Shown here: one piece after another, positions 894-16,007 of the stretch
Layout of the letters: every line of letters begins with the position of its first letter
How positions within the stretch are numbered: the first letter of the stretch is position 1
IMG/VR virus record: IMGVR_UViG_2713896896_000011
Location: 1 to 16,007 of that record
From: a virus
Taxonomy: Duplodnaviria > Heunggongvirae > Uroviricota > Caudoviricetes
DNA: 16,007 bases
Direction: 5' to 3' (one strand)
The notes under the pieces: generated by a model
Seen by the model: the letters and a program-made list of their open reading frames with translations, nothing else
The model's database searches: none
What the model was told of the DNA's origin: nothing
Translations under genes and position numbers: made by a program

Positions 894-1504
894 GGTTGCC
901 AGCCTGTGGAGTAGTCGTAGTCGAGCACCGCCTGAATATCGCCCAGAGTTTCCACCGCCGCAATATGGCGCTGGGCGTTGGCAAACAGGCGCATATCGTG
1001 AGCCATGGTGACGGATTCAAACTGGGCGGCGATTTCATTGGTTAACTCAATCAGACCGTTATTTTTAGTTTTCCACATTAAACCTGGCGGAATTTGTTTT
1101 TCGGCTCCCATTTTTGTGAGTGAGAGTTGTTGGATTCGGCTATTTGTATCACTGTGGAAGTGATAGCCGTTGAGGATGATGTAATCGGTTGTGATGTAAT
1201 CTCGTTTGGATTTTATTCTTCTTATTATATCTTCTTTTATTTCTGAAATAAATTTAAGTATTGAATCTGTATCAACTATCCATTCTCCTTTTTTCAGTTT
1301 GTGAAATTTATCTGGTGGTGGCATAGAAATGAAGGATAAATCTTCACAGTTAATCCAAGTTGGAATATTATCTCTTGCATATATCTGCCATTGCTGATCA
1401 GTTATTTCAACTAAATGTTCTACTTTGGGATAGTTGTAACGTTCTGTATCGAACCAGTCCAAAACAACAAATGTTTCAGGATCAAAACATGCATATTTTG
1501 TCAT
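890..1504 (-). CDS. tail fibre assembly protein (Tfa-like chaperone)
   Basis: 204-aa ORF immediately downstream of the tail fibre gene (6-nt gap). Size and position match Mu U / P2 G / lambda Tfa-type proteins. The N-terminal-encoding half (about 1200-1504) is strongly AT-rich, the C-terminal half has host-like GC. Confidence 0.7.
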   Translation of the reverse strand: MTKYACFDPETFVVLDWFDTERYNYPKVEHLVEITDQQWQIYARDNIPTWINCEDLSFISMPPPDKFHKLKKGEWIVDTDSILKFISEIKEDIIRRIKSKRDYITTDYIILNGYHFHSDTNSRIQQLSLTKMGAEKQIPPGLMWKTKNNGLIELTNEIAAQFESVTMAHDMRLFANAQRHIAAVETLGDIQAVLDYDYSTGWQP

Positions 1505-1510
1505 TTTTAA

Positions 1511-3169
1511 TTACCATGATATTTTTACGAAACCAGAGGCACCTTTTGTTCCGCTAGTATTGCCTAAGTTTGTTAATTCATTATTGTCATATTCAAAAGG
1601 AGGCAAATAAGATCCTCCCGCTCCTCCAGAACCATAGCCTATTGCTGGTGTCGGATGTGTCATTATTGCCTTACTTCCACCATTATCCAGATATTCTGTA
1701 ATAACAGTGCCAGCGCTCCCTCCTTTTCCATATATGGAATTTTCACCATTCTTGCCAGGATAAAATTCTGCATATAACCGTATTGCGCCAGGTGCATAAG
1801 TATTTGGATGGTCAATGAATTTTATACAAGGCTGCGTAGTGTTAAAGTGATAAATGTTATATCCCCCATGACCTCCTTTGGCAATCATATTAGAAAATGA
1901 AGAGTCACCACCATCAAAGCTTTTTTGTGTTTTCTCTGTGTTATCCGATGAATACTTTACTTGTGAAACAGGTGGATTATTCCAAAATGGACCTCCATTA
2001 CCTCCAGCCCCAACCTTTACTGAAAAATGCTGGCTTGGTTCCACGTTTAAGTAACCAACGAGCAATTCACCTGTATTGCCACCACATGCTTCATAATATG
2101 ATGATTGTGCTCCTCCGGCACCACCACCACCGCCGCCCATAACTTCCACAAATAATGTAGTTACGCCATCAGGAACTGTAAATGTTCCATTTGTAGTATA
2201 AAAACTAGTGTGAGTATGATTAGCCGGAGCTGCAGCATTAGCCTTATCCATTGCCGCCTTAACCGCACTCGGCGTGGCTGCCTCCGTCGTGCTGTTGCTG
2301 TCCGTCGCATTATTCAGCTTCACAATCCCTTTTTGCGTCAGGGTGCCATCCTGAATACCCGTAATCTGCCCCCAGGGATGCGTATGACTGCCTGCAGCTT
2401 TACCATTTGCCAGGTCATACGCCGCCTTAACCGCGCTCGGTGTCGCTGCCTCCGTCGTGCTGGTGCTATTGGTCGCGTTATTTAGCTTCACAATTCCTTT
2501 TTGAGTCAGCGTACCATCTGGAATATCAGTAATTTGACTCCAGGTATGACGATGGTTTCGTGCCTCAATCATCGCCGCTTTCACCGCTTTTGACGTAGCC
2601 GCTTTAGTTTCGTCATCACTGTCAGTGGCGTTACTCAACTGCGTAAAGCCTTTTTGCATTAACGTAGCATCAGGATGATTAGTCGAACGTGCATGTTTAT
2701 CCAGTTGTGAATCAACATAATCACGTGTTGCCAGTACAATACTGGGATCAACGGTGAGTGTTACCGCAGTCGTGTTGGAAACTTCCATAATGAGACGAAT
2801 GCAAACTTGCTTACCGCTGCCGCCGGGTAATAGCGGTTTATACGATTCTGGGAATTTACCGATAGCAATAAGTTCGCCGTCAGTATCAAAAACGCCGACT
2901 TCACGTACATACCAGCCGCCGATATTTTCGGGCAGTACAAGTTCCGCAATTAACCAGTTAGGATTACTGGGTGCAACTGTTAATGTATTTAACTCACCAC
3001 GCCATACTTCATGACGTAATTTTGCTTGACTCGCCGAGGGTTCGTAATATTGCCCACCGCCGTCTCCAACGGCCATCTTTTGCAGATGTAGTTGTTTTTT
3101 ATCCGCAAGAGCACTGGCAATTTTTGCCATCCCCCTGTCGGTCAGGAGGGTATAAAACTCATTATCCAT
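1511..3169 (-). CDS. tail fibre protein (P2 H / Mu S-like N-terminal domain, fibre repeats, Gly-rich C-terminal domain)
   Basis: 552 aa. N-terminus (MDNEFYTLLTDRGMAKIASA...MAVGDGGG) resembles the tail-collar fibre N-domain. Three tandem ~56-aa repeats (TLTQKGIVKLNNATDSNSTTEAATPSAVKAA) follow, then a C-terminal domain with poly-Gly (GGGGGGAGG) encoded by low-GC DNA. SD GGAG precedes the ATG at 3169. Confidence 0.85.
   Translation of the reverse strand: MDNEFYTLLTDRGMAKIASALADKKQLHLQKMAVGDGGGQYYEPSASQAKLRHEVWRGELNTLTVAPSNPNWLIAELVLPENIGGWYVREVGVFDTDGELIAIGKFPESYKPLLPGGSGKQVCIRLIMEVSNTTAVTLTVDPSIVLATRDYVDSQLDKHARSTNHPDATLMQKGFTQLSNATDSDDETKAATSKAVKAAMIEARNHRHTWSQITDIPDGTLTQKGIVKLNNATNSTSTTEAATPSAVKAAYDLANGKAAGSHTHPWGQITGIQDGTLTQKGIVKLNNATDSNSTTEAATPSAVKAAMDKANAAAPANHTHTSFYTTNGTFTVPDGVTTLFVEVMGGGGGGAGGAQSSYYEACGGNTGELLVGYLNVEPSQHFSVKVGAGGNGGPFWNNPPVSQVKYSSDNTEKTQKSFDGGDSSFSNMIAKGGHGGYNIYHFNTTQPCIKFIDHPNTYAPGAIRLYAEFYPGKNGENSIYGKGGSAGTVITEYLDNGGSKAIMTHPTPAIGYGSGGAGGSYLPPFEYDNNELTNLGNTSGTKGASGFVKISW
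2204..2683 (-). repeat. three tandem ~168-bp coding repeats inside the tail fibre gene (third copy degenerate)
   Basis: gccgccttaaccgcactcgg at 2253-2272 recurs as gccgccttaaccgcgctcgg at 2421-2440, a 168-bp period, matching the repeated protein motif. Confidence 0.8.
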
Positions 3170-3171
3170 AA

Positions 3172-3804
3172 TTACTCCGGGTAAATAGATGTAATTTCAA
3201 GGCTCCATTGCCCTGTTCCGTAAAAGATTGTTGTGTTTTGTTGTACTTCCCGTATCTGGAAAGGTAAAAGCGTCGTCAGTTCACCCCCATAAAGCGCACA
3301 GCTAATAACAGGGATAGCACTTTGGTTAATGATCCAGACGATTAATGCTTCCAGTTTTGAACGTGTGTTTTTATATTCATGAATGAGTTCAACTAACTCA
3401 TTGAAAAGGTTTTCATCCATGCCTTTATCCACCAGTTCTATGTCAACCTTAAAAAAATAAGCTTTCCCGCCATATTCAAACCATTCGGCAATAGTTCCAG
3501 GCAATGAGAGTATTTCCAGTACTCGCCGTACCGCCCAAACTGTTCCTTTATATTTATGTAACTCAATGGCTTGCTTAATTAACTCACGCTTCTCTTGTTC
3601 ATCAGTAGTAAATAACCAACCTTCCAGCCCCTGAACGTGAAATTGTTCTGCAAGGGCAGGTAATGCCGAAGCATCAACCAGGTCGACCAGATAAACCATC
3701 AACGCCGTCAGATCGAGTTGCGCAAAACGTTCGGCGGCGATATTTGCCAGAGTTGAAAAACGCTCATCGCTGGTAAGCGGCGGCGGTAGCAGCAATTTAT
3801 CCAT
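3172..3804 (-). CDS. baseplate protein, P2 gpI / Mu gp48-like (YmfQ / DUF2313-like)
   Basis: Lies between the J-like gene and the tail fibre. The ORF track starts at TTG 3819; the likely true start is ATG 3804-3802 (MDKLLLPP...) preceded by GGAG and overlapping the upstream stop by 8 nt. Family call is from size, position and sequence resemblance. Confidence 0.7.
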   Translation of the reverse strand: MDKLLLPPPLTSDERFSTLANIAAERFAQLDLTALMVYLVDLVDASALPALAEQFHVQGLEGWLFTTDEQEKRELIKQAIELHKYKGTVWAVRRVLEILSLPGTIAEWFEYGGKAYFFKVDIELVDKGMDENLFNELVELIHEYKNTRSKLEALIVWIINQSAIPVISCALYGGELTTLLPFQIREVQQNTTIFYGTGQWSLEITSIYPE

Positions 3805-4912
3805 CGCTGACTCCGGCAATCGTGACGTCTATTACAGTGCATTCCGCCCATTCATGCGCCTGCAAAATACGTTTTGTAGGCATGTTCAGCACAACGTCAT
3901 AGACGCCATCGACTTGTAACACTTTGATTATCTGGTTTGGCACAATGTCCTGCCCCAGATGTTTCTGCCGCTGTTGCGTCCAGAGGCTAATCGCTTTACG
4001 CGCCGCAGTCAGTGTTGTCTCCTGATCGGCGGTGGTAAACAGCGTTAGCTGCGCACGAATTTCATACGGCACCCTGAGAGCACATTTCGCACTTACTTTG
4101 TCAGTCAGCGGACGTTTTTTCTCTTTACTCACTTCTTGTTCAATTTGCGCGAGTAGCTCGGTTCCCGGCAGACCATTCAGGGTTAGCGGGTAGAGCTCGA
4201 CGCAGCCTTCTGGCAACCCTTCATCTGGCCCCAGTACTGCAACGTCAATAATTGACTGGCTAACCGAAAGTGTATGAAAGCGATATGCGCCATAGCTGCC
4301 GGCATTACTGAAGCTTTCTGGCGCCAGTTGTATACGCTGGCGTAGTGCATCATCGTTCTCTTCACCGCAACCGCCGGTTGTGGGAGTCAGATTAGTCACG
4401 TTGATATCGTAATAACCGATCCTGTCAACAAGGGCGCTAATCTGTGCAGGCTGCCAGCCATTGCCCTGTTCACCTGCTGCGAGGCTGGTGGCCGGAACGG
4501 CGATATGCAAACTCCTGGCCGGAAGCAGAACATCTTCATCGGTGGCGAACATCACGCTGTCAGAGGCACTGGCCCGCGTCCCCTGGGGAATCAGGATATT
4601 GCTGGTATACGCACTGACGACCGAAAACTGCAACGTCGTTTTTGCCGGTTGCGCAGGTAAACGGTGAACACCCACCAGCTCCCCTAAATAATCCAACATT
4701 GGTGCGCGGGAATACGCGACCAGGTTTTGTTTCGCCGCTTCCTGAATGGCGATGCGCACAAGGTTTTCACGATAGGCAAACAGGTCGATGAGTAACCGTT
4801 CGGCCTGTGCCGGATAGAGTTTTTTACCGCTGGCATCTTCGTATTGCGCAATCATCTCGCTGGTAATTTGCGCAGGATCGCGGTCAATAAAATCGGGTTC
4901 GGCTATCGCCAT
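3797..4912 (-). CDS. baseplate J-like protein (P2 gpJ / Mu gp47-like)
   Basis: 371 aa. Strong SD GGAGG 4-5 nt before the ATG at 4912. Overlaps the upstream gp25-like gene by 10 nt. Conserved position in the baseplate module. Confidence 0.8.
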   Translation of the reverse strand: MAIAEPDFIDRDPAQITSEMIAQYEDASGKKLYPAQAERLLIDLFAYRENLVRIAIQEAAKQNLVAYSRAPMLDYLGELVGVHRLPAQPAKTTLQFSVVSAYTSNILIPQGTRASASDSVMFATDEDVLLPARSLHIAVPATSLAAGEQGNGWQPAQISALVDRIGYYDINVTNLTPTTGGCGEENDDALRQRIQLAPESFSNAGSYGAYRFHTLSVSQSIIDVAVLGPDEGLPEGCVELYPLTLNGLPGTELLAQIEQEVSKEKKRPLTDKVSAKCALRVPYEIRAQLTLFTTADQETTLTAARKAISLWTQQRQKHLGQDIVPNQIIKVLQVDGVYDVVLNMPTKRILQAHEWAECTVIDVTIAGVSDG

Positions 4913-5262
4913 AACACCTCCGTTGAGTTGATTACGCCGTCAGCGGCGCGCCATTGCACACGTAACGTCAGATGTTCACCGTCGATTATCGGTGCTACCT
5001 TCAGCAACCGACATCGCGGTTCCCACTGGCGGATGGCTTCCACCGACTCCCGTACCACATGCGGGATTGCCCGCTCGATGGGGTAATCGATGTAGTGCCA
5101 CAAGTTGCTGCCAAACAGCGGTCTGTGGGGATCACTGCCGCGCGGCGTGCGCAGAATGATGTGTATTGCCTGGTGAATATCATCCAGTCCGCAGACGTAT
5201 TCTTCAGGCCGCTGCAAGGCGGGTTGCCAGTGCAGCGTTGAGGGGCGTGTTTTTGTGTTCAT
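4903..5262 (-). CDS. baseplate wedge protein, gpW / gp25-like (Mu gp46-like)
   Basis: 119 aa. Contains RPLFGSNLWHYIDYP, resembling the gp25/W signature. Located between the spike and the J-like gene. Confidence 0.75.
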   Translation of the reverse strand: MNTKTRPSTLHWQPALQRPEEYVCGLDDIHQAIHIILRTPRGSDPHRPLFGSNLWHYIDYPIERAIPHVVRESVEAIRQWEPRCRLLKVAPIIDGEHLTLRVQWRAADGVINSTEVLWR

Positions 5263-5325
5263 GTGCTTATTTTCGCCCTGAACGGACAGTGGGGATATTA
5301 AAGCGATTTAGAAAACTGATTGATT

Positions 5326-5355
5326 AAAAAGAGAAAACCCGCCATCAGGCGGGTT
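5326..5355 (-). terminator. intrinsic terminator-like hairpin immediately after the spike gene
   Basis: Stem aacccgcc (5336-5343) / ggcgggtt (5348-5355), loop atca. On the minus-strand RNA it is followed by UUCUCUUUUU (plus 5326-5335). Sits in the 98-bp gap between the spike and gp25-like genes. Confidence 0.55.
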
Positions 5356-5360
5356 AAAAG

Positions 5361-6020
5361 CTAGTGTGAATGGTGATTTGAGTTACCACCGCTATCCTGC
5401 AATGTGCCGCTGGCCTGAACGTTACCAATCACATTGACATTGCCAGTTATCGTGGCGGCGTTACCGATGCCTCCACTTCCTGCCATGCCACCCAGCCAGG
5501 TGAGTTTTTTCATTACCGTGACGTTACCAGTAAAGGTGCTCATGGGCGCATCTACCGTCACTGTCGCCGCTTTAATATCGACGGTATCGGAAGTCACGGT
5601 GACCTGTTGGGCTTTAACCTCAACGTTGGGTGATGTCAGGTTAGTATGGTCAATAACCTCAATCACGATTTTCTCAATACCGCCGTTAATCGTAAGCTGG
5701 TGTGTGCTGCGGTCATATTCAAACGCTGCGCCATCAGAAAACTGGACGTAACGTTTATCTCGCGAGGCCACAGGCGCGGTGTCAACCGTAGAATAAACGG
5801 CCCCAAGTACCACGCCATCTTCGCCGTTGTCGTCCAGCAGAACTTCCACCTGCTCACCCATATCCGGTAGCCAGTAGTCTTTATTGTCCTGGGAATTACG
5901 TTGAAGTACCGCAAGCCAGTTACTCTTCAGATTGTCGCACTCTGGCAGTGTGACTCGCACCCGAACGCTGGTTTCGTCAATATCGCTGATAATCCCCGTT
6001 TGCCGGGTTACTCCCTTCAT
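5361..6020 (-). CDS. baseplate central spike / assembly protein V-like (Mu gp45-like)
   Basis: 219 aa. N-terminus GIISDIDETSVRVRVTLPECDNLKSNWL resembles gpV. C-terminal repetitive beta-helix-like region (GNVTV...GNVNVIGNVQASG) ends in the His-rich tip NSNHHSH. SD GGAGG 4 nt upstream of the ATG. Confidence 0.8.
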   Translation of the reverse strand: MKGVTRQTGIISDIDETSVRVRVTLPECDNLKSNWLAVLQRNSQDNKDYWLPDMGEQVEVLLDDNGEDGVVLGAVYSTVDTAPVASRDKRYVQFSDGAAFEYDRSTHQLTINGGIEKIVIEVIDHTNLTSPNVEVKAQQVTVTSDTVDIKAATVTVDAPMSTFTGNVTVMKKLTWLGGMAGSGGIGNAATITGNVNVIGNVQASGTLQDSGGNSNHHSH

Positions 6021-6029
6021 AGTGCCTCC

Positions 6030-7070
6030 TTACTGGCTGGTTGCTGGCCCGCGCGAAACGTCGATTTCAGTGGTATAGCCGCTGCGCACAAAACTGTGAG
6101 TAGATTTATCAATCAGCCATTGTCCAGAAAGAATACCAAAATCAATGAGTTCGATTTTATTGCCTGCTGTCAGTTCCGGGCAGCCCATCATCCTGAGTGT
6201 TCCGGTTTGCTGATATTCGTTGTGGCTGTCGAGTGCAGCGTTGGCCTTTGCCTGTGCCGCGCCAACATCCGTCGCCCGGCTGTTGAGTTTCAACGTGTCG
6301 GCACTGGTGCCGACTCCACGGGCTGACGGTTTTTGCTGGCTGTCGTGAGTGTAGATAACCAGTTCTTTTTTCTTACTATTTTGATGCTGTACGGTGGCGT
6401 TCTTGTAGATGCGATTAATGGTGTCTTTGAAGGTAAAGTGCGAAACCTCTTTGCGGTCGATGGTTTTCACTGGCGCCAGGCAGCGTAGTGTCGGCAGATG
6501 TGAAAAAATCAGCTCTTTTGTCGTCACTTTCACGGCATAGCCATATTCGCTGGCCAGACGCTTGAGAAATCCAACATCGGTTTCGCCGTACTGTGTCACC
6601 CGGTCAATCGCCAGCGGCTCGATTTTGCCCACCAGCTTCAGACCGTGAGTTTGCGCGATACGACTGGCGATGGCCGAAAGCGTCGTTTCTTCAAAGCCCT
6701 GACTGTTACGGGTACGCAGCGCCTGATTGACGGAAGTGGCAATGCCATCAATATTTACCGTGGAAGGTGGTGCTGAAATATCAATTTTATCAATAATATA
6801 CTGACCGCAATTGAGGAGCGTCTCCCCCTGATAACCCATATGCAGCGCCAGCGTATCGCCTTTGCCGGGATACCACTCTTTTATCCAACGTCCATCGGTG
6901 TCATCCAGTGTAATGGCGATGGTATCTGACTCGTTTTTGATGCTGTCGTGGTAACTGATGCTGGTGACATAGGGCGTGATGTCATAAGTGATATCTTTAT
7001 GCCCATACCAAAGGGTAAAAATGGGCGCGAGTGTGGCAAAGACGCCACCAGATACGCTTATCTCAGCCAT
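6030..7070 (-). CDS. baseplate hub / tail protein, P2 gpD / Mu P (gp44)-like
   Basis: 346 aa, placed between tail protein X and the spike as in Mu and P2 tail modules. Assignment by size, order and N-terminal resemblance. Confidence 0.7.
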   Translation of the reverse strand: MAEISVSGGVFATLAPIFTLWYGHKDITYDITPYVTSISYHDSIKNESDTIAITLDDTDGRWIKEWYPGKGDTLALHMGYQGETLLNCGQYIIDKIDISAPPSTVNIDGIATSVNQALRTRNSQGFEETTLSAIASRIAQTHGLKLVGKIEPLAIDRVTQYGETDVGFLKRLASEYGYAVKVTTKELIFSHLPTLRCLAPVKTIDRKEVSHFTFKDTINRIYKNATVQHQNSKKKELVIYTHDSQQKPSARGVGTSADTLKLNSRATDVGAAQAKANAALDSHNEYQQTGTLRMMGCPELTAGNKIELIDFGILSGQWLIDKSTHSFVRSGYTTEIDVSRGPATSQ

Positions 7071-7270
7071 GGTGGTATCTCCGATAAGGTTTTGTTGACG
7101 GAAATGACCGGAATAATGAGTTGAATACCGGAAGGCAGTACCGGGTAAATGGCGACATGTGGATTGGCGGCGATGATGCGTTCATAAGCCAGCGCATCGC
7201 CGTAGTAATACCATGCCAGATTATCCCAGCGTTCGCCGTCGGTGGTGATATGTTCAAGGTATCGCATCAC
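7058..7270 (-). CDS. tail protein X-like (LysM-like small tail protein)
   Basis: 70 aa. WYYYGDALAYERIIAANPHV...IQLIIP matches the LysM-like pattern of P2 gpX-type proteins. Start overlaps the upstream stop as ATGA. Confidence 0.7.
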   Translation of the reverse strand: MMRYLEHITTDGERWDNLAWYYYGDALAYERIIAANPHVAIYPVLPSGIQLIIPVISVNKTLSEIPPWLR

Positions 7271-8220
7271 CAGCTCCTCGTAATGGTCGCGGCAGCAAGC
7301 TGGCTCACTGCGGGAGTGGTTTGTTGTACCGTTGTTCGTGCCTGCTCAACCAACGTTGCGGCTTTATCGAACGTCGCTTCGGCGATGTCGTTGGTAATGT
7401 CGTCGAAAAGCGCCTGAGCATGGTCAACCAGCGTGCTGGCGTCTTTGGCGCAGTCCCGGATACCTGGCATGTTACCCAGTAAAGCGTTAATCTGCGCCGA
7501 TAACGCTTTTGGGAGTCCTGCCAGCGTTTGCAGATCCATGGGCTGTTTAAACAGGGTTTCGATGGCGTCGATAGTCTTTTTCAACGACGTAATTATCTTT
7601 TCACACTTTTCTTTTAACGCTTTGGCCTCTTTAACCAGTGCTTTCACTTTTGCCACCGTTTTTTTAATATCTTCAATGGCTTGAGTCAGCTCATCGAGCA
7701 TCTCTTTGGCCTTACGCATACCTTCTTCAATGGCGTTCAATATCTGATCAAACCAGGACTCCACCATGTCTGGAAAATCGCTCGCCTTTTCGTCAATATT
7801 CGGGTCTTGGGTAGTAATTGCCGGGGGCAAGAGTGGATTTTTAGGATCGCCGGTGTACTCCTGGAGCGACATTGTTCCGCTTTGAGCAATCACATTGCCC
7901 CAGGGATCGGTGTGCTGGTGGGTGGCGGTTAGCTCCGTAATCACAAACCAGCCGCGATAATCGCCATTGCCAAACACCAGAGCCATCGCTTTGTGGGCAA
8001 GCATGGCTTCACGCAGTCGATTCAGCTCTGTTGTGGGTTGGCAAAACTGGCTGTGCAAGGAAAATTCCAGTGCCAGCATATCCAGCTTATCGCCAATAAA
8101 CTGCACGCCGGGTTTGCCTTCTATACGGGCATGTGTGGCGTAGTCCACGCCCATTGTGCTTTTAAAGCCGTCCCAGAATGTGACAACCTTAAATTCAATC
8201 TCTCCTAAAACGGCATACAT
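7267..8220 (-). CDS. DNA circulation-like tail protein (Mu N / gp43-like, short form)
   Basis: 317 aa, immediately downstream of the tape measure; start overlaps the tape measure stop as TGATG. Central Lys/Glu-rich coiled-coil segment. Assignment mainly by synteny. Confidence 0.6.
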   Translation of the reverse strand: MYAVLGEIEFKVVTFWDGFKSTMGVDYATHARIEGKPGVQFIGDKLDMLALEFSLHSQFCQPTTELNRLREAMLAHKAMALVFGNGDYRGWFVITELTATHQHTDPWGNVIAQSGTMSLQEYTGDPKNPLLPPAITTQDPNIDEKASDFPDMVESWFDQILNAIEEGMRKAKEMLDELTQAIEDIKKTVAKVKALVKEAKALKEKCEKIITSLKKTIDAIETLFKQPMDLQTLAGLPKALSAQINALLGNMPGIRDCAKDASTLVDHAQALFDDITNDIAEATFDKAATLVEQARTTVQQTTPAVSQLAAATITRSW

Positions 8221-10595
8221 CAGGCATACCCCCGGCGCTGTTGTTGCGCCATTACGTCGTTAATCATTCTTTCCAGTTCGCGTTTACTTATCGTCAACAC
8301 GTTCTGAATGTCTTTAGTGGTGTTTTGTCCGTTACTCTGCACGGTAATTTGTGGCGAAAAATTCACCTGAACTTTTCCAGAGGAACGGGAGGGGAGCGTC
8401 GCCGGTTTGGTTACAGATTTACCAGGTAAAGAGGCCGATGCGGGTTTGGCGGCTGTATTTTTTGCCGCTGGTGTCGATGGCGACGTTGTCGTTTTACTGG
8501 ATGGCGCGAGTTGTTTGCCCACAGGAGGCGTTAAAATCGCTCCGGCAACGCCTGGAACAACGGTCGTGGGGGAGATTGATGCGGTATTCGTCGTGCTTGT
8601 AACAGCCGTAGCCGATCCTTCTGTGCTAATACCCATCGTGGTTTTTAGCCAGTCCGGTAAGGCGTTTTTGACCTGATCAATAATGCCTTTCAGAGCGGGG
8701 AAAGCATTCATTATGCCGTCAACCAGACTGCCCAGAAGATTGCTGCCGAACTCGCTAAAACTTGCAGGCATCTCGACACCAAACCAATTCATCACACTGG
8801 AAAAGGCGCTGTAGAACAACTCCAGCGGCGACCAGTCGAGAATTAACCGGCAAATCCCTGCAATGCCGCCGTCAAAGGCCGTGGTGATACGTTGCCAGAT
8901 GGCGGAAAAGAATCTGGAGATAGGTTCCCAGTGGCGATAGATCAGATAAGCAGCGCCCGCAATCGCGGTGATGACCAGACCAATGGGATTCATCAATAAA
9001 ACTCTACCCAACCAGAAGACGGTCTGACCTGCCAGTTTCAATGCGCCAATCAGGCCACGGCCAAGCAGTTGCGTTAGCCATTTTGCGCCGTTATATAATG
9101 ACTTAACCGCTGATAGCATCTTACTTGCCGCGCCTGTGAGCGTCAGACTTGCCCTGACTTTCAGGAAGATATCGACCAGACGAATAAACGGCGAGGCGAT
9201 GACGTTCGCGCCCAGCTTTAAAACATTCAGTGCGCCGTTAAACAGCCAAATCGCTCCGACGATTTTCGCAATGTTTTGCACCAGCGCCGGGTGTTCACGT
9301 AGCCAGGCGCTGAACTGGCGAATCACCGGAGTAAGGCTTTGCGCCAACTCGCCAATCAGCGGCATTAATTGCAAGCCAATGCTGAGCCATAAATCATTTA
9401 ACGCCAGTTGTAACGTTTTAGTTTGTTCAATGGGTGAGGCCATCTGCACAGAAAAATCGTTGTCAATCAGATTCTTACCGCTGTCTTGCATGGCGGAGGC
9501 TTTTAACTGGCGATACTCTTCCATATTCGCCAGCACAGGTGCCAGGAATTCCACTGTTTGCGCATCGCCGAACATTTCGCCCAGATTAAATTGCGTCACC
9601 ATCGATTGCAGTGCGTTGCTGCGAGCAGATAAATCTTCAATTTGCATGGTGCGTTTGAAGGTGTCGAGGATCGCCGGATTCATCTTCTCAAGTTGCGTTT
9701 GCACGATATGAATCATGGCTTCGCTAACACCCATGCCGTTTTGCTGATGTTCAAGCAGAGAGCCTTGCAGATCGACGCCCTGGCTGACGAACCAGTTATC
9801 GGTTTTTTTCGAAAAGATGGTTTGCAGAAAGTGGTCGAAATTCTCCGCCGCCACACTGGCGCTGGCACCATTTTTCATTGCGATCTGCATTGTGGCGGTC
9901 AGTTCAGCCATACCTTCTAAACCCTGTGCGCCAGTTTTAACTGCAAATTTGTCTATCCACTGTGTTTGCCCGGCAACGGTAGGCCCACCGTTTTTGCTAA
10001 TGCCGTACATCATGTTTTGCGCGGCGTGGAAATTTTCTGGCGCAATATTCAGTCGATCATGAGTCGCGAGCGCGGCATTCGCCCATGTTTCAGCACTTTC
10101 GCGCGTGGTGGTGGCCGCTTTGGCGATCTCCGGCATATAACGGTTGAGATCCTGCATCGACGACAAATTACCTTCGATTAGCACCTGGGCTGCGTTCTGT
10201 AAGGTGGTCTGCTGCTGGTTAAAATCCATGCTCCAGTCGCGCAGATTAAGGCTGAGTGTCTCGCGGGTTGTATCATTCATCCCACCTTTGGTCGCCAAAT
10301 TGACCATGTTGTCCTGAAACTCATACGGCAACTTCCAGTCAGGGATTTCAACATTGAATACTTTGCTAAATTGCCCGGCAAATGTTTGGGTTTTCTCCAT
10401 CAGATCAGCGCGGTTTCGGCTATTTTCCTCCAGGCGGAGAGCGGAATCGGCAAGTTGCTGCGTTAGTTTGATTACTGTCGCTTGCTGAGAAGAGAGTGCT
10501 AACAATGTTCTGGCGTTGAGTGAGCCGTAACGGGCTATTGCCTGCGTCAACGTCTCATTACGCGCCTGAAGCTGGGTAATAATATCGTTGGCCAA
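8220..10595 (-). CDS. tail tape measure protein
   Basis: 791 aa with internal hydrophobic segments and a Ser/Thr/Pro-rich C-terminal tract, located between chaperone and baseplate genes. Apparent start is TTG at 10595-10593 with AAGAG upstream; there is no in-frame ATG between the upstream stop (10634-10632) and the TTG. Confidence 0.85.
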   Translation of the reverse strand: MANDIITQLQARNETLTQAIARYGSLNARTLLALSSQQATVIKLTQQLADSALRLEENSRNRADLMEKTQTFAGQFSKVFNVEIPDWKLPYEFQDNMVNLATKGGMNDTTRETLSLNLRDWSMDFNQQQTTLQNAAQVLIEGNLSSMQDLNRYMPEIAKAATTTRESAETWANAALATHDRLNIAPENFHAAQNMMYGISKNGGPTVAGQTQWIDKFAVKTGAQGLEGMAELTATMQIAMKNGASASVAAENFDHFLQTIFSKKTDNWFVSQGVDLQGSLLEHQQNGMGVSEAMIHIVQTQLEKMNPAILDTFKRTMQIEDLSARSNALQSMVTQFNLGEMFGDAQTVEFLAPVLANMEEYRQLKASAMQDSGKNLIDNDFSVQMASPIEQTKTLQLALNDLWLSIGLQLMPLIGELAQSLTPVIRQFSAWLREHPALVQNIAKIVGAIWLFNGALNVLKLGANVIASPFIRLVDIFLKVRASLTLTGAASKMLSAVKSLYNGAKWLTQLLGRGLIGALKLAGQTVFWLGRVLLMNPIGLVITAIAGAAYLIYRHWEPISRFFSAIWQRITTAFDGGIAGICRLILDWSPLELFYSAFSSVMNWFGVEMPASFSEFGSNLLGSLVDGIMNAFPALKGIIDQVKNALPDWLKTTMGISTEGSATAVTSTTNTASISPTTVVPGVAGAILTPPVGKQLAPSSKTTTSPSTPAAKNTAAKPASASLPGKSVTKPATLPSRSSGKVQVNFSPQITVQSNGQNTTKDIQNVLTISKRELERMINDVMAQQQRRGYA

Positions 10596-10684
10596 AATTG
10601 TTTCTCTTATAGATTGGTGATGGCCCGCTGGTTAGTTTTCTGAAAAATGGGCTGGGAAGAAATAAACCTGGCGGGCTTTGAAGA

Positions 10685-10709
10685 ACTCGCAGACATCAGG
10701 TCTGCGAGT
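10685..10709. other. 10-bp perfect stem-loop in the chaperone-tape measure spacer
   Basis: actcgcagac (10685-10694) / gtctgcgagt (10700-10709), 5-nt loop. The loop contains the stop codon (10698-10696) of the +1-frame extension ORF. No adjacent U-tract on either strand. Confidence 0.5.
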
Positions 10710-10846
10710 CATATTCGATTTTTATTTGAGCGCTGGCTTCATCCAGCCAGTGACTAAAGTCATCTATCGTGAGCGCGTCAATCTCACTGGGTGGAAAGCG
10801 AAACCATCTCGCCAGTAGCGCCATTGCCTGCCATAGCAGGGGGGGA
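10696..10846 (-). other. candidate programmed-frameshift extension of the tail assembly chaperone
   Basis: A C7 run on the coding strand (plus 10839-10845) lies inside the chaperone gene. The +1 frame stays open from there to TGA at 10698-10696, 88 nt beyond the 0-frame stop; the -1 frame ends at 10766-10764. Chaperone-tape measure pairs with frameshift products are a conserved feature of tailed phages. Confidence 0.3.
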
Positions 10847-11101
10847 TTCTGTAGCCACGGTAAGCATGGATTGAAATCGTTTCTGCAACGCCTGGTAATC
10901 CAGCAAATCCATTTCAGCTAAATCTTCTGGTACCAGCCCGGTCATCGCTGCCATTAGCGGTTCATCCCATTCTTCCGGCTTTTCGCTGACCCGGCGTGCA
11001 TTACGCATATCTTTGACTTTCAGGCGACGTAATTGTAGCGTGTCGATATTATTTCCTGCTGCCGACGTAAAGGGAAACTGTAAGATATAATGCTCTTTCA
11101 T
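10784..11101 (-). CDS. tail assembly chaperone (Mu gp41 / P2 gpE-like)
   Basis: 105-aa acidic protein directly upstream of the tape measure, with SD AAGGA before the ATG at 11101. Conserved position. Confidence 0.7.
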   Translation of the reverse strand: MKEHYILQFPFTSAAGNNIDTLQLRRLKVKDMRNARRVSEKPEEWDEPLMAAMTGLVPEDLAEMDLLDYQALQKRFQSMLTVATESPPAMAGNGATGEMVSLSTQ

Positions 11102-11127
11102 TTTGTATCCTTATTTATTTTGCGGAG

Positions 11128-11147
11128 TTCGGGGCCGTAGCCCCGAA
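11128..11147. other. stable stem-loop between tube and chaperone genes
   Basis: ttcggggc (11128-11135) / gccccgaa (11140-11147), loop cgta, 4 nt after the tube stop. No U-tract follows on the minus-strand RNA, so it is not a canonical terminator. Confidence 0.5.
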
Positions 11148-11151
11148 TAAC

Positions 11152-11676
11152 TTAGCCACCGATGTTATTGCGATAGGTACTTAATTGATCCACGCCGTTA
11201 ACGCGGAAAATATTCGCCATATAATCCAGTTCAAGCAGCGTTTCACCATCGACTACTTGTTTAATATAAGTGCAGCCAAAGGCGCTGCTGAATTCCGGGT
11301 TTTCATTCTGTTTAAATGTGCCCAGTGGATTTTTTTTAAACATCACGGTTAAATGTGTGACTAACGCTAATTGATTCGCTTTCCCCTGAGAGTTATAACA
11401 ATCAATACTGGAGCGACACTGTAATGCTACAGCCTGCCACGGGTTTGCCGTTTTACGCATTACGTCCTGGTAAAAGGAGTTCCATTTAATTTCCCCCTCC
11501 AGTTTATCGAAACCAGCCGGGAGTTCTATTTTACCCACCATGCCCAGTGCTTTATGTTCCTGCATAATTAAACTGACATCTGGCAATTTAATTTCTGTTG
11601 CACGGCCTAAAAGATTATTACCATCGAGATAAATATTGGCGTTGGTAATACGGTTAATTTGAATTTTTCCAGCCAT
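11152..11676 (-). CDS. tail tube protein (Mu M / P2 FII-like)
   Basis: 174 aa, immediately after the sheath gene (TAATG overlap), in the conserved sheath-tube order of contractile tails. Confidence 0.8.
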   Translation of the reverse strand: MAGKIQINRITNANIYLDGNNLLGRATEIKLPDVSLIMQEHKALGMVGKIELPAGFDKLEGEIKWNSFYQDVMRKTANPWQAVALQCRSSIDCYNSQGKANQLALVTHLTVMFKKNPLGTFKQNENPEFSSAFGCTYIKQVVDGETLLELDYMANIFRVNGVDQLSTYRNNIGG

Positions 11677-13097
11677 TAGCGATTGCTCTCCAGAGAGACT
11701 AAATATTCAGAGGTAATTTCAGTTTCAAACGTCAGACGTTCCAGCGGCGGCGGTGGGGTAAATTTATAGCTGAGCAATAAATGCCCGGCACTGAGTTCAG
11801 CCGGTGAATTTCGCGCCGGATCGTACCAGCACTCAAAGCCAAGCAGTGCGCCGTCGGCAATCAGTTTTCGGCCCCAGGTATTTACCGATTCGGTCAGCGC
11901 GTCAATCAGTGCCTGATTGATCGGCATATCAATATACTGCTGACTGAAATAACGGATTGACTCATTAATTACATCGCCTGTCCGGCGAACGTTTTCAAAG
12001 TTACGCATATGAGTCACGGTTGGCCATGCCGCTGTGCGGTTGCCCCACAGGCGCAGACCAGAACCATAACTATTGAAAATAGTGGTAATACCGTTTTCGT
12101 TGAGCTGATTCACTTCGCTTTGTGGATCATCAATCATTGCGGAAAGCGAACGTTCGATACCGGTAATACCCTGAATTTCCTGGTTTGAGTTGCTCCACCA
12201 GAAACCTTTTTCGAGGTCTACTTTGGCACGTAGCCCGGCAGCGCGCGAAGAGAGAGGTTCAAGAATTTCCTGGTTAGTGATGCCATCGTAAACTTTGACG
12301 TGTGGGTAGCATAAACGTGCACGATCAGAGCTGGTATTGAAGTTGATTGCGCCTTGCGAACCGCGTCCAGCCAATACCTGCTGGAATGTAGTCCCAATTG
12401 GGGCATCAATGTAGGTAATCGCACCGAGTTTTTCCGCTTGTGCAATCAGCTCGGTAGTCACTGATTTTTGCGTACAAAAAACGGGTGCCAGCAGAATTTT
12501 GGCGTAGAAACCATACAAGTTATAAGTGTCCTGAAGGAGCCTCATCCCCGTGCGATCGCCTGCGGTATTAACGGCCCCGATAATATCGGCTGCGGTGACC
12601 TTTGTAGGGTCAACATAGGTATAAGTCGCGTAAACCTTTGCTCCTGCCGCAATTTCAGTTCCTGTACGGGTAATAACGCCGTCAGCGGCATTAACGCTGT
12701 ATGATGTATTTTTGTATGTAGTGGAACTGATACTTGCTCTTAGCGTTACCGAACTTACCCCCGGATGAGTTAATTTAGCTTTATCGTCACTATTGAACGT
12801 AATGGTTTCATTGGTAATGTGTAGTCCATGTTTTACTGGATCCAGCACATTAATTACCACCACTGTACCGGCACCGTGATCATAAATCGCCTTCAGCGCC
12901 TGCGGGATCGTAAAGTTAGCCTGAGTCGATCCAAACTGTGCCGCGTCACTTTCAGAAAGGCACAGCGTCGGTTGGTTTACCGGGCCACAGGGAGCGGTAC
13001 CGATTAAAGCGATTACAGCAGATTTTACTGCTTTTACCGGACGCGGGCCGGTTTCAATTTCAATGGTTTCTACACCGTGCAGATAATTAGCTGCCAT
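11676..13097 (-). CDS. contractile tail sheath protein (Mu L / P2 FI-like)
   Basis: About 473 aa. The ORF track starts at TTG 13103; the more likely start is ATG 13097-13095 (MAANYLHG...) preceded by GAGGAA. Size and position are typical of sheath proteins. Confidence 0.85.
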   Translation of the reverse strand: MAANYLHGVETIEIETGPRPVKAVKSAVIALIGTAPCGPVNQPTLCLSESDAAQFGSTQANFTIPQALKAIYDHGAGTVVVINVLDPVKHGLHITNETITFNSDDKAKLTHPGVSSVTLRASISSTTYKNTSYSVNAADGVITRTGTEIAAGAKVYATYTYVDPTKVTAADIIGAVNTAGDRTGMRLLQDTYNLYGFYAKILLAPVFCTQKSVTTELIAQAEKLGAITYIDAPIGTTFQQVLAGRGSQGAINFNTSSDRARLCYPHVKVYDGITNQEILEPLSSRAAGLRAKVDLEKGFWWSNSNQEIQGITGIERSLSAMIDDPQSEVNQLNENGITTIFNSYGSGLRLWGNRTAAWPTVTHMRNFENVRRTGDVINESIRYFSQQYIDMPINQALIDALTESVNTWGRKLIADGALLGFECWYDPARNSPAELSAGHLLLSYKFTPPPPLERLTFETEITSEYLVSLESNR

Positions 13098-13284
13098 GTA
13101 CAATTTCCTCTACGTTATTTTGTTCTTCCTGGGGAATGATGAGAATCAAGTGATTTCGGGCAATCATGGTCATAACCCACTCATTGTCTTCTGGCAGATC
13201 AATTTCACTGTTCGGCCATAATAAGATTTCTTGACCGTCGGCAAGGGTGACGCCGCTTGCCGGACCGTTGTAGATATATTTCAT
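13087..13284 (-). CDS. small conserved protein upstream of the sheath (Mu gp38 / DUF2635-like)
   Basis: 65 aa. Start overlaps the upstream stop as ATGA; overlaps the sheath start. Assignment by position and size only. Confidence 0.5.
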   Translation of the reverse strand: MKYIYNGPASGVTLADGQEILLWPNSEIDLPEDNEWVMTMIARNHLILIIPQEEQNNVEEIVHGS

Positions 13285-13736
13285 TCAGTTTCCTCGTAAT
13301 TAACTTCAGTAAGCAGGGGAAGATCCGTGCTGTCCTGTTCAGCGATAAACAGCGAGCTGGTCGCCATTTCCAGGATGTAGCGGCAGAAACCGTCGCTCTC
13401 ACCCGTATTAATTTCTTTTTCAAGCCAAATAAGATGATCGCAATCAGGAGGCTGAAGGCCTCCCAATGCGCTGCGTATGTGATCAAGTGCGTTTAACGCA
13501 TCACAATTTTTGCCAACAATAACGGTGGCGGTTAAGCGGAGTATTTGCTGTTGTACAATGGCATCACTACTTTCGGGCGTGGTGAAGACAGAACCGCTAT
13601 AATTAATAATCACCGTAATCTGTTGTGTCTGTGGAATATATTTTGGGGCATCCGTAGATGAAATGAATATGTCCATTTCAGGATGCCGATCACGTAATCT
13701 GACCACGACATAATTCATTACAGATAAAACTTTCAT
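13281..13736 (-). CDS. tail terminator / tail completion protein (Mu gp37 / K-like)
   Basis: 151 aa, first gene of the structural module after the terminator hairpin, with SD AAGG upstream of the ATG at 13736. Sits where Mu-like genomes encode gp37 before the sheath. Confidence 0.5.
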   Translation of the reverse strand: MKVLSVMNYVVVRLRDRHPEMDIFISSTDAPKYIPQTQQITVIINYSGSVFTTPESSDAIVQQQILRLTATVIVGKNCDALNALDHIRSALGGLQPPDCDHLIWLEKEINTGESDGFCRYILEMATSSLFIAEQDSTDLPLLTEVNYEETE

Positions 13737-13842
13737 ATGAGGTTTACCTTATTACCGCTCACTTCGTTATCGTTGAAATGTATTCTGAAGCAGTGAGAGT
13801 GAAGAATCTTTTAATGTGATTTAGAGAAAAAATTGAATGGTT

Positions 13843-13877
13843 ATAAAAAATCCCCACACTTACGTAAAGGTGGGGAT
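13843..13877 (-). terminator. rho-independent terminator separating the lysis cassette from the tail structural genes
   Basis: Near-palindromic 28-bp hairpin (13850-13877; arms atccccac / gtggggat) 5 nt after the stop of gene 13882-14196. On the minus-strand RNA it is followed by UUUUUUAU (plus 13843-13850). Confidence 0.65.
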
Positions 13878-13881
13878 GTAT

Positions 13882-14196
13882 TTAATAACTGCCACGTTGT
13901 AATAACTCTATTTTGCTATATAAGGCATCCAGCTTTGCTTCTAATACTGCTTGTCCACGAAGATAATCCTCTCTGCGGACATAATACAGTGGAAGTTCGG
14001 CACGAAATTCGAGAAATTCTCTTTCCAGTTTCGACCAGCTTGTTTCTGATTCCCTGCGGGCATTTTCCAGGGACTCAAAACGCTCATTAAGTCTTTTTTC
14101 AATTTGCGCTAACAGCAATTTTCCGGCAGCAAACATTAATCCAACGAATGAAAGCATAAAGGAGATCACTTCCCAAAAATCGATACTGAGTTTCAT
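13882..14196 (-). CDS. membrane-anchored coiled-coil lysis accessory protein (i-spanin-like or releasin-like)
   Basis: 104 aa. N-terminal hydrophobic segment (WEVISFMLSFVGLMFAAGKLLL) followed by a charged coiled-coil region. SD GAGGGG 4 nt before the ATG. Immediately downstream of the lytic enzyme. Confidence 0.5.
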   Translation of the reverse strand: MKLSIDFWEVISFMLSFVGLMFAAGKLLLAQIEKRLNERFESLENARRESETSWSKLEREFLEFRAELPLYYVRREDYLRGQAVLEAKLDALYSKIELLQRGSY

Positions 14197-14208
14197 CGGC
14201 CCCTCTGA

Positions 14209-14814
14209 TTAGTGAAGACAGCTTGCCTGTCCCCAGAGTAAGTAGCGGGCGGCGTGTTGATAGAGAATCATCTTCGGATAGTGACGATTTTCTCGCCAGT
14301 TTGCGGCGCTGCGCCCGGCGTTGACTTGCTCAACATGACCAAACCAGATGGCGGCATTTAACCCTTTTGTTGTCGCCAGTTTTTTATCCCGGTTAATCCA
14401 ACCCTGACCACCGTTATAGGCGCTTAGAGTAAACGCCATACGTTGACAATCATTTTTTGCAGAGATGTTGTTCCATAAATGCTGGTCGTACTGTACCAAC
14501 GCCCGGATTGCCCAGGTTGGGTTATACGGTTTGTTTTCATGTAGCTGTGGATACAGTTGGCTTATCCATGTCGCTGTGGCAGGCATAAATTGCGCCATAC
14601 CTTGTGCGCCAACGGGGGAACGTACCATTGGCTGCCAGGCGGACTCCTGGTGTAATTGCCCGGCAAAGTCAGCCACCGGAGCGTTCAGTCCCCAGACTTC
14701 TCGGGCGGTACGAATCAATTCATTTCTCCATGCCAGAGAGGCTTGTGGTGGTTCAGACGCGTTAAGCGGGAAAAGAACGAAAATAATCATAGGCGCGATA
14801 TATTTTAGCCACAT
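14209..14814 (-). CDS. lytic transglycosylase-type endolysin (SLT domain) with N-terminal signal or signal-anchor
   Basis: SLT-like motifs (QLHQESAWQP with the catalytic Glu context, GAQGMAQFMPATA, AYNGG). The likely start is ATG 14814-14812 (MWLKYIAPMIIFVLFPLNA...), abutting the holin-like stop in TAGTGATG. The ORF track's longer start at 14913 overlaps the upstream gene and is probably not used. Confidence 0.75.
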   Translation of the reverse strand: MWLKYIAPMIIFVLFPLNASEPPQASLAWRNELIRTAREVWGLNAPVADFAGQLHQESAWQPMVRSPVGAQGMAQFMPATATWISQLYPQLHENKPYNPTWAIRALVQYDQHLWNNISAKNDCQRMAFTLSAYNGGQGWINRDKKLATTKGLNAAIWFGHVEQVNAGRSAANWRENRHYPKMILYQHAARYLLWGQASCLH

Positions 14815-14816
14815 CA

Positions 14817-15104
14817 CTATAGCCCTAACGCGACGGAAAGGCAGACTGCAGCCACGATGATGGCGCGACGAATCATTGCCGCTGCGTAGCAACGCGGTTC
14901 CTTTCTGGGGCAAAAAAAGTCAGGCCGTGCCCAGGGGAACAAACTACGATCGAGCCAGTATCCCAGCACTGCAGAAAGTGAAACCAGGCTTAGTTTATAA
15001 ATGACGACCGGAATTTGTGCTGAAGATGTCCAGCCGATTAATGCGATCAGAGCAATGGCTGCAGCCAGCCAACCGGAAAGACGGGGAAAAGTGATTTTTC
15101 TCAT
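14817..15104 (-). CDS. holin-like small membrane protein, first gene of the leftward operon
   Basis: 95 aa with two or three hydrophobic segments. Strong SD AGGAGA (15116-15111) 6 nt before the ATG at 15104. Directly upstream of the lytic transglycosylase. Confidence 0.55.
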   Translation of the reverse strand: MRKITFPRLSGWLAAAIALIALIGWTSSAQIPVVIYKLSLVSLSAVLGYWLDRSLFPWARPDFFCPRKEPRCYAAAMIRRAIIVAAVCLSVALGL

Positions 15105-15659
15105 ACGATATCTCCTGATAAGTGAGATACCAGTGTCTGCTTATCTCTTTGCTGAAGAATGAAAAAAGCTTTAATAAATAACTTTAAAAAATGTGTTCTC
15201 TTCGAATTAACATGTTCGCCAATTAATCTCCCAACTCAAAATAGAGAACTAAGGATAAAATGGCTGCTAGTTAGATAAATCCTGCGTTATGTGTAATGAA
15301 GGGGATGACATATTGCAATCATGGTCATTACTTATTTGATTTTTAAAGTTTGTTTAAAAAAATCCTCGACTGTGAGGGAAACGAGCTTTTTGAAAAGTAG
15401 GCGATAAAAATGATAAATAGCACTGTATATGTATACAGTATCGTGTAAAATGGCACTCCTGTTGATAAGACATGTAATGAAAATAATATATTTGTTTTGT
15501 GAATTTATAATTCGTTTTAATTTTTATTGCATATACATTGTGATTATTTATTTGCGTGTTGAATGTATTGAAAAGCAGTAATTGCACCAACTTAGCGGAT
15601 ATCCGTGGTGTAACTCACATCAGAGTCCATACAGGGTGCAAGATATATGGAGATGAAAA
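15105..15659. promoter_or_regulatory. AT-rich divergent control region between the lysis/tail operon and the Mor-like gene
   Basis: About 555 bp at roughly 28% GC, flanked by divergently oriented start codons with good Shine-Dalgarno sequences on each side. Contains the LexA-like box and several dyad symmetries. Confidence 0.6.
15421..15440. promoter_or_regulatory. LexA (SOS) box
   Basis: CACTGTATATGTATACAGTA matches the E. coli LexA consensus TACTGTATATATATACAGTA at 18 of 20 positions, with intact CTGT-N8-ACAG (15423-15438). A TTGAAA -35-like hexamer at 15390-15395 and AT-rich -10-like sequence TGATAAAT (15411-15418) lie just upstream on the plus strand. Confidence 0.7.
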
Positions 15660-16007
15660 ATGATACAAAAAGCAAAAGAGATGACCCGGACACCGGAGAT
15701 CATTAACGATTTGGCGTTTCATGCTTCGCAAGTTCTGATTGAGAGCATCAATCTGGATAGCTCATCTGCGGAAAATGTTGGCTATGCCATTGCCGATCGC
15801 ATGATGCGAAACTGGGGCGGACAAAGCATTTATTTTCCAAAAGGAATCGCCAGGCGTGCCTCGGAGCGGGACTATCAAATCTATAGCGAGTGCGATGGGC
15901 GCAACTACGCCGAATTAGCGAAGAAATATAATCTGACGCTGCAATGGATTTATAAGATAGTAAAACGCGTGCATACAGAAAAGCAGCAACAGCGCCGTAT
16001 GCAGTAG
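15660..16007 (+). CDS. Mor/C-family transcriptional activator (Mu middle/late activator-like)
   Basis: 115 aa. C-terminal region GGQSIYFPKG...RDYQIYSECDGRNYAELAKKYNLTLQWIYKIVKR aligns by eye with Mu Mor (GGQVYIPRG...RIWNDFNGRNVSELTTRYGVTFNTVYKAIRR). SD GGAGA 6 nt before the ATG. The stop codon is the last triplet of the window. Confidence 0.7.
   Translation: MIQKAKEMTRTPEIINDLAFHASQVLIESINLDSSSAENVGYAIADRMMRNWGGQSIYFPKGIARRASERDYQIYSECDGRNYAELAKKYNLTLQWIYKIVKRVHTEKQQQRRMQ

Follow-up and report, generated by a model that had tools for sequence, protein, structure and literature searches.

We analysed a 16,007-nucleotide (nt) stretch of viral DNA (Caudoviricetes; positions 1 to 16,007 of IMG/VR record IMGVR_UViG_2713896896_000011), here called the window, which carries a cluster of contractile-tail genes, a lysis cassette headed by a holin gene and, in the opposite orientation, mor, the gene for a Mor/C-family transcription activator. 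The divergent control region between the holin gene and mor, a spacer of 555 base pairs (bp), contains at 15421-15440 what is, judged by its sequence, a very good operator for LexA, the host SOS repressor. We consider it likely that this box is a functional host LexA operator, that LexA occludes a rightward promoter reading into mor, and that Mor then drives the lysis and tail genes.

The 20-mer at 15421-15440 reads CACTGTATATGTATACAGTA and differs from the LexA consensus TACTGTATATATATACAGTA only at positions 1 and 11, resulting in 18 of 20 matches and perfect CTGT and ACAG half-sites. This bears out the near-consensus LexA box that an earlier inspection of the letters alone (the sequence-only reading) had proposed. 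The site has the form of the gammaproteobacterial SOS box, TACTGT(AT)4ACAGTA with the core CTGT-N8-ACAG. Chance estimates were based on 200 shuffles of the window. The core occurs once in the 16-kb window, with 0.16 occurrences expected, and was found at least once in 31 of the shuffles. A 20-mer with three or fewer mismatches from the consensus likewise occurs once in the window and was found in none of the shuffles. Using a LexA weight matrix built from 28 E. coli LexA sites that were not drawn from a database, the box scored 25.4 bits and was the unique top site of the window (runner-up 10.4 bits; best site of all shuffles 19.6 bits). The recA and sulA boxes, likewise not drawn from a database, both scored lower on the same matrix at 21.9 and 21.8 bits, and the approximate heterology index calculated from this matrix was 2.9 for the box versus 5.1 for recA and 4.3 for sulA. 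Its predicted LexA affinity is comparable to that of the strongest SOS boxes of E. coli.

Conservation of the box was analysed across 40 loci, all with the holin/mor architecture, by taking the sequence upstream of mor from each. The set comprised the window, E. coli (L001) and Salmonella Infantis (L013), Phytobacter, Dryocola and two Superficieibacter loci (L002-L005), six NCBI genomes encoding an identical Mor protein (L007-L012), 25 IMG/VR contigs (L014-L038) and two Enterobacter hormaechei-type contigs (L046, L047). A contig scan with a single protein gave five loci and further loci came from IMG/VR and exact-protein look-ups. CTG-N10-CAG was present upstream of the same mor gene in 35 of the 40 loci, namely in Escherichia (window, L001, L007-L012), Salmonella (L013, L022-L028), Phytobacter, Dryocola and Superficieibacter. 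Because the box is found at the same place in so many loci, a chance origin is removed. The distance from the box end to the mor ATG is 219-244 nt, and 291 nt in two loci. Operator variation was tallied over 22 distinct operator sequences, in which CTGT and ACAG are unchanged. Positions 3-6, 8, 13, 15-18 and 20 are invariant, while variation is found at positions 1, 2, 7, 9-12, 14 and 19. Fixed half-sites around a variable centre are the substitution pattern that LexA tolerates. In multi-genus alignments, the box is the best-conserved island of the spacer (32% G+C versus a window mean of 47.5%), with many substitutions and indels in the surrounding sequence.

Co-conserved with the box is the sequence GTGTAAAATG to its right (15443-15452), within which TAAAAT occupies exactly positions +6 to +11 from the box end in 19 of the 22 distinct sequences. 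In an Enterobacter-type clade (L034, L037, L038, L046, L047), the box and TAAAAT are both absent and other spacer blocks are kept. Given the fixed spacing to TAAAAT and this joint loss, the box and its right flank appear to form one module. The Enterobacter-type clade carries the same tail-only cluster, located at lysC (confirmed for L046 and L047), and its Mor is 83-86% identical to that of the window. Reduced copies of the locus were also observed in Salmonella. Two of them (L040, L041; Mor cluster P0003) keep only mor beside lysC, with a gene for a hexapeptide-repeat acetyltransferase in place of the tail cluster and the LexA box and with homology stopping ca. 150 nt upstream of mor. A third, decaying copy (L042) has a broken box and frameshifted genes.

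In the circuit that we propose, the module consists of an A-rich tract, the box, 5 nt and TAAAAT, where the box would fill the -35 region and spacer of a rightward sigma-70 promoter into mor (Table 1). In an undamaged cell, a LexA dimer on the box would exclude RNA polymerase from this promoter. DNA damage would lead to RecA-stimulated self-cleavage of LexA, free the promoter and increase mor transcription. Mor would then activate divergent promoters lacking a -35 element, one for the cassette of holin, SLT lysin and membrane protein and one for the tail operon, so that headless contractile tails are made and the cell lyses. The host SOS repressor would thus take the role of a phage repressor. 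The direction and start site of the controlled promoter, the action of Mor on the late promoters and the production of particles are predicted features of this circuit.

Promoter candidates were collected using a consensus scan and simple hexamer scoring across 26 distinct sequences. The rightward candidate combines a -35 hexamer CTGTAT (15423-15428) inside the box with a 17-nt spacer and TAAAAT, resulting in a predicted start at ca. 15458. The 22 nt left of the box are on average 76% A+T and 55% A in all taxa. Of the promoters overlapping the box, we take the rightward one to be the one that matters biologically, because mor is the sole feature downstream of the box in every taxon, because no element on its left is shared by all taxa that have the box and because the left side has neither a conserved RNA structure nor an Rfam family.

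Published Salmonella data back the proposed circuit in part. In S. Typhimurium 14028, STM14_5073 is a plus-strand gene of 348 bp between yjbD and malE (PMC8072944 Dataset S1). Its size, strand and synteny make it the probable mor orthologue, STM4219. Its expression rises 4.08-fold with nalidixic acid (PMC8072944 Dataset S1), which is indirect evidence for SOS inducibility of mor. Start sites are available from differential RNA sequencing of uninduced late-stationary SL1344, where STM4219 starts 120 nt before its ATG and a leftward start, 24 nt to the left of it, is assigned to the STM4218 operon (PMC3963941 supplementary file 13). Both 51-nt SL1344 promoter strings were found exactly in L024, a box carrier. 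The divergent SL1344 starts (4459135, minus strand, and 4459159, plus strand; 2357 and 2381 in L024) are active without SOS induction. Their promoters share the palindromic sequence TTTATAATTAAA in the AT-rich mor leader, a region that is not conserved in the window.

Several of these data weigh against LexA control of mor and its consequences as outlined above. With regard to the promoter, the hexamer score of the rightward candidate is only 7.6, its -35 hexamer CTGTAT is weak and it scores below the overlapping leftward candidate TTTACA-16-TACAGT. Conservation does not separate the two promoters, since every hexamer of either one coincides with the box or with one of the hexamers of its counterpart. 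The predicted leader of ca. 200 nt has no recognisable function. In L024, the box ends 106 nt upstream of the mapped mor start and lies inside the leftward leader, whose start is 82 nt to the right of the box. Since this mor start, 106 nt beyond the box, was mapped in uninduced SL1344, mor is also transcribed independently of LexA from within the AT-rich leader. Thus, the predicted promoters overlap the box on both strands and the only mapped starts, both from uninduced Salmonella, are 82 and 106 nt away. A missing start at the box is what would be expected for a LexA-repressed promoter in uninduced cells, and is not proof of one. With regard to induction, 1091 genes were up with nalidixic acid (PMC8072944) and STM14_5073 is not among the LexA-box genes of that study, which covered boxes within 400 bp (PMC8072944 Table 1). 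The fourfold rise of mor is weak evidence for these two reasons. Further, STM14_5042-5072, the tail and lysis genes, are absent from the differential list for nalidixic acid (PMC8072944). The cascade suggested in the sequence-only reading, from LexA cleavage through Mor to lysis and tail genes, is therefore reflected in the published data at the level of the mor orthologue and not at the level of its late targets. Judging by L024, STM14_5073 has a near-consensus LexA box ca. 245 nt upstream of its start codon, inside the 400-bp limit.

LexA-independent transcription of mor in the window could come from a second rightward promoter-like site, TTGATA-16-TAATAT (15462-15489), which lies 22 nt right of the box and is strong in Escherichia only. 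The leader of the window also contains a TATAAT at 15506-15511. The conserved block at 15536-15590 was considered as the place of a proximal sigma-70 promoter and rejected, as neither inspection by eye nor the scan gave an acceptable -10.

Among the alternatives to LexA control of mor alone, a minor but real chance remains that the promoter under control of the box is the overlapping leftward one, either by itself or in addition to the rightward promoter, in which case a single operator would shut face-to-face divergent promoters. The resulting RNA would be either short, ending at a dyad and T-run at ca. 15364-15377, or a long leader into the holin operon. No other promoter-like site scores as high or recurs as often as TTTACA-16-TACAGT, whose spacer and -10 are covered by the box. 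It has 9 of 12 matches, is present in 23 of the 26 distinct sequences and is reported by the consensus scan in the window and in Salmonella. Its -35 is supplied by the conserved TGTAAA, and GTGTAAAATG is the exact union of TGTAAA and TAAAAT. Conservation of this complete sequence would fit the use of both promoters and is best explained if TTTACA on the minus strand and TAAAAT on the plus strand both matter. In Salmonella, a 6-bp hairpin followed by T5 lies downstream on the minus strand. However, nothing downstream in the leftward direction is conserved in all box-keeping taxa, the GTGAGG..ACGATC block being absent in Dryocola, Superficieibacter and L032, and TACAGT would be conserved anyway as part of the operator. 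In Salmonella, nalidixic acid induces mor and not the holin or tail genes. Neither strand gives a consensus RNA structure or an Rfam match; on these grounds, and because its block is missing in three box-keeping lineages, a small leftward RNA under LexA control that would stop at the dyad and T-run was rejected as a candidate.

The sequence-only reading had likewise proposed that LexA occludes a rightward promoter toward mor, but had placed this promoter differently, with TTGAAA and an AT-rich -10-like element directly upstream of the box. With GATAAA as the -10, transcription would begin where the box starts on its left, and LexA would block it just past the -10. SOS control of mor remains the likeliest reading, whereas this particular geometry is improbable. 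Both hexamers are present in the window as described, separated by 16 nt, several taxa have TTGA in the conserved CTTTTTGA block with an A-rich stretch ca. 17-19 nt further on, and Phytobacter and L022 have TTGATC-17-TAAAAA. The site is, however, not conserved, since in E. coli its place is taken by TTACAC and a deletion of 10 bp, and Dryocola, Superficieibacter and L032 have unrelated sequence there yet keep the box. Further, the TTGAAA site was not picked up by the consensus scan, and the last T of the hexamer is missing from its -10. In the Enterobacter-type clade, the CTTTNTGA block is still present and the box has been lost, which shows that the two do not form one unit.

Even less probable is a role of LexA as a roadblock or architectural element in the leftward leader, limiting read-through into the lysis and tail operon. 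The leftward SL1344 start of the STM4218 operon, 82 nt right of the box, means that the box is transcribed, but the AT-rich region with that start shows little conservation from genus to genus, nalidixic acid does not induce the holin operon, terminator-like dyads are found further along the same leader and the adjacent conserved GTGTAAAATG would be left unexplained. Finally, a chance or decayed palindrome without present function can be dismissed with near certainty, since, despite a distance of ca. 220 nt to mor and 317 nt to the holin gene where most SOS boxes lie closer, no shuffle matched, the half-sites are invariant in five genera within a fast-evolving AT-rich spacer and the box decays or vanishes along with decaying copies of the locus (L042, L040/L041).

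Table 1. Positions of the operator, promoter candidates and genes in the window
Feature	Position	Strand	Details
LexA operator (SOS box), predicted	15421-15440	.	cACTGTATATgTATACAGTA; core CTGT-N8-ACAG at 15423-15438
Candidate -10 TAAAAT of the rightward (mor) promoter	15446-15451	+	5/6 match, within GTGTAAAATG
A-rich tract, possible UP-like element	15400-15420	+	ggcgataaaaatgataaatag; putative function
Leftward promoter candidate	15422-15449	-	-35 TTTACA 15449-15444, 16-nt spacer, -10 TACAGT 15427-15422
Second rightward promoter-like site	15462-15492	+	TTGATA-16-TAATAT (or TTGATA-19-TATATT)
Promoter named in the sequence-only reading	15390-15417	+	TTGAAA 15390-15395, 16 nt, GATAAA 15412-15417
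mor, Mor/C-family transcription activator, 115 amino acids	15660-16007	+	PF08765, E 8e-38
Holin, first gene of the divergent lysis cassette	14817-15104	-	ATG at 15104; PF13272 Holin_2-3, E 7e-26; homologue annotation
SLT-domain lytic transglycosylase (endolysin)	14209-14814	-	PF01464; 201-amino-acid gene called in L007
Membrane protein of 104 amino acids, last gene of the lysis cassette	13882-14196	-	No Pfam family
Contractile-tail genes	438-13736	-	Pfam; syntenic E. coli annotation
Candidate late promoter, lysis cassette	15144-15209	-	TTTTTTAAAG, N20, CATTCT (-10 at 15161-15156), no -35
Candidate late promoter, tail operon	13770-13835	-	ATTAAAAG, N20, CAGAAT (-10 at 13787-13782), no -35

The presumed target of LexA control is a member of the Mor family. 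The Mor protein of the window matches PF08765 with 129 bits (cutoff 24.9) and residues 10-114 covered. BLASTP gave 26% identity to Mu Mor (3e-14) and 36% identity over 61 amino acids to Mu C (3e-11). More distant Mor homologues (45-49% identity) are found after gemA in Mu-type early operons that have no LexA box, so a free-standing, LexA-linked mor is specific to the tail-only element. In the nearest of these (L043 1296-1664, L045 1680-2063), the gene directly follows gemA as in the early operon of phage Mu. The gemA linkage points to a Mu-like origin of the activator, and the tail genes look P2-like (GpU, gpD, baseplate J, tube FII).

The tail set encodes a Gp37-family protein, sheath, tube, assembly chaperone, tape measure, GpU, X, D, V and W, baseplate J and I and a fibre, together with a DUF4376 protein and one hypothetical protein. 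By annotation and Pfam, neither the window nor the complete E. coli locus has head, packaging, replication or integration genes. No repressor-like gene was found in them either; mor has the holin gene on one side and lysC on the other. The cluster therefore has two of the features of an R-type tailocin, a complete contractile-tail set with a lysis cassette and the lack of head, packaging, replication and integration genes. We describe it as tail-only and R-tailocin-like on the basis of its gene content. In the lysis cassette, the longest open reading frame of the SLT lysin (14209-14913, TTG start, 234 amino acids) overlaps the holin gene by 97 nt. A start at 14814 (201 amino acids), 3 nt past the holin stop as in homologues, is more likely.

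The E. coli homologue is located between yjbD and lysC and consists of tail, lysis and mor genes only. Clusters with ca. 83% identity were found in 197 of 5426 complete E. coli genomes, the Salmonella counterpart comprises the tail, lysis and mor genes STM4212-STM4219, and the exact Mor protein of the window is found in many NCBI genomes. In one of these (L007), lysC-pgi shows ca. 90% identity to E. coli, so the source is a non-coli Escherichia, perhaps E. albertii. In SL1344, STM4206 is annotated as gtrA, encoding a phage glycosyl transferase for O-antigen modification, and has a separate start site (PMC3963941 supplementary file 13, entry 831). Judging by its number, STM4206 may lie in or beside the tail cluster; no counterpart was seen in the window.

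Two leftward sites are candidates for Mor-dependent late promoters, one in front of the lysis cassette and one in front of the tail operon, the latter conserved across four genera. Both share the pattern T(T/A)AAAG-N20-CAnnnT, defined post hoc from these two promoters themselves, and have a weak -10 and no -35. At the Mor-dependent Pm promoter of Mu, there is also a -10 and no -35, and the activator site overlaps the -35 region (PMC4287176). The candidates would fit Mor-type activation by analogy with Pm. Their putative Mor sites are A+T-rich and direct-repeat-like and differ from the Mu Mor site, a G+C-rich dyad; no likeness to the Pm dyad was found.

Two sets of repeats were observed in the spacer. 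A perfect 11-nt inverted repeat, AACTTTAAAAA at 15180-15190 and TTTTTAAAGTT at 15340-15350, has its arms 149 nt apart, one inside the candidate holin late promoter and the other in a conserved block left of the LexA box. A 28-nt direct repeat (15320-15347 and 15536-15563, 75% identity) has its first copy in this same block left of the box and its second in a conserved block ca. 100 nt upstream of mor. These repeats may be extra activator sites. The plus-strand copy of TTTTTAAAGTT was also considered as a rightward Mor-dependent promoter and rejected, as there is no -10 at the N20 position.

Overlapping dyads followed by T-runs are found on both strands at 15364-15395 in the window and at 5389-5414 in L013 (CCTC..GAGG then TTTTTTT on the minus strand, CTCG..CGAG then CTTTTT on the plus strand). 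They are terminator-like on both strands in Salmonella, show no covariation across genera and may insulate the divergent units. A further minus-strand hairpin, tCCCCACctttacgtaagtGTGGGGa followed by TTTTTT at 13845-13875, lies between the end of the lysis cassette and the tail-operon promoter and looks like an intrinsic terminator dividing the two late units. It was overlooked by the terminator scanner, owing to its long loop, and is deleted in the E. coli homologue. Other candidate features of the spacer were rejected. The mor leader showed no conserved RNA structure (z = 0.27 for the single-sequence fold; 0 pairs with RNAalifold on 14 taxa), and a TTGCACC/GGTGCAA pairing seen in it by eye is broken in E. 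coli. Two small open reading frames of the spacer, encoding 50 amino acids on the plus and 78 on the minus strand, have no family and lie in an indel-rich region without conservation.

Several known systems resemble the proposed circuit in part. The classical SOS boxes of recA, sulA, umuDC and uvrA/ssb have the same 20-bp palindrome with CTGT-N8-ACAG and an operator placed over core promoter hexamers, as is predicted here, and uvrA and ssb share one box between divergent genes (PMC8072944). In contrast to these, the target in the window is a phage-derived activator and not a repair gene, and binding here is predicted. As is proposed here, host LexA directly gates a lethal mobile-element programme in colicin operons, phage 186 tum and the dinI-linked antirepressors of Gifsy, the latter being described as LexA-controlled (PMC8072944). 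Their targets are toxins or antirepressors, whereas here the target would be the late-gene activator of a tail-only element. With Mu, the system shares the activator family and target promoters, candidates here, that have a -10 and no -35. In Mu and Mu-like prophages, however, mor follows gemA at the end of the early operon and lacks a separate promoter.

With regard to tailocins, the R- and F-pyocins of P. aeruginosa are controlled by the SOS-cleavable PrtR, which acts through the activator PrtN on the tail and lysis genes of a chromosomal tailocin (PMC12297226). The two-step cascade of repressor and activator proposed here is the same, but PrtR is encoded by the element itself and PrtN lies outside the Mor family, while here LexA would repress and the activator belongs to PF08765. 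The general logic of a Mor-like activator that is switched on by DNA damage and turns on a bacteriocin and lysis programme is that of RdgB in Pectobacterium. This RecA-RdgA-RdgB system, described by Liu, Chatterjee and Chatterjee in 1994, reportedly controls pectin lyase, carotovoricin and lysis. There, rdgB is controlled by RdgA, a cI-like, RecA-sensitive repressor, in place of which the window has a host LexA operator. An element-encoded, RecA-cleavable repressor beside the activator, as in PrtR/PrtN and RdgA/RdgB, is absent from this locus.

A full-text literature search found nothing on this tail/mor locus or on a link between LexA, Mor and a tailocin. The LexA boxes in a paper on vesicles of extraintestinal pathogenic E. 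coli were considered and belong to other prophage endolysins. Promoter occlusion by LexA is textbook knowledge, and the gain is a candidate member of the SOS regulon together with a testable circuit, a mild variant of known tailocin switches. Tentatively, a broader picture is possible in which the cluster is a tailocin fixed in the chromosome at yjbD-lysC in several enterobacterial genera that discarded any phage repressor and placed its Mu-type late activator directly under LexA, with one operator perhaps gating two overlapping divergent promoters and an Enterobacter-type sister lineage without LexA input.

If LexA binds the box, a lethal tail-and-lysis programme would belong directly to the SOS regulon among carriers of this cluster, which include ca. 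4% of complete E. coli genomes, many Salmonella and the non-coli Escherichia of the window. In that case, quinolones and other antibiotics that induce the SOS response could set off the release of tailocins in the gut, together with lysis and the killing of one strain by another. The system would represent a minimal domesticated phage weapon, consisting of a host repressor, one activator and the late genes. The box-bearing and box-less clades offer a ready comparison and, if our reading is true, a natural experiment in the rewiring of a suicidal weapon to or from SOS control.

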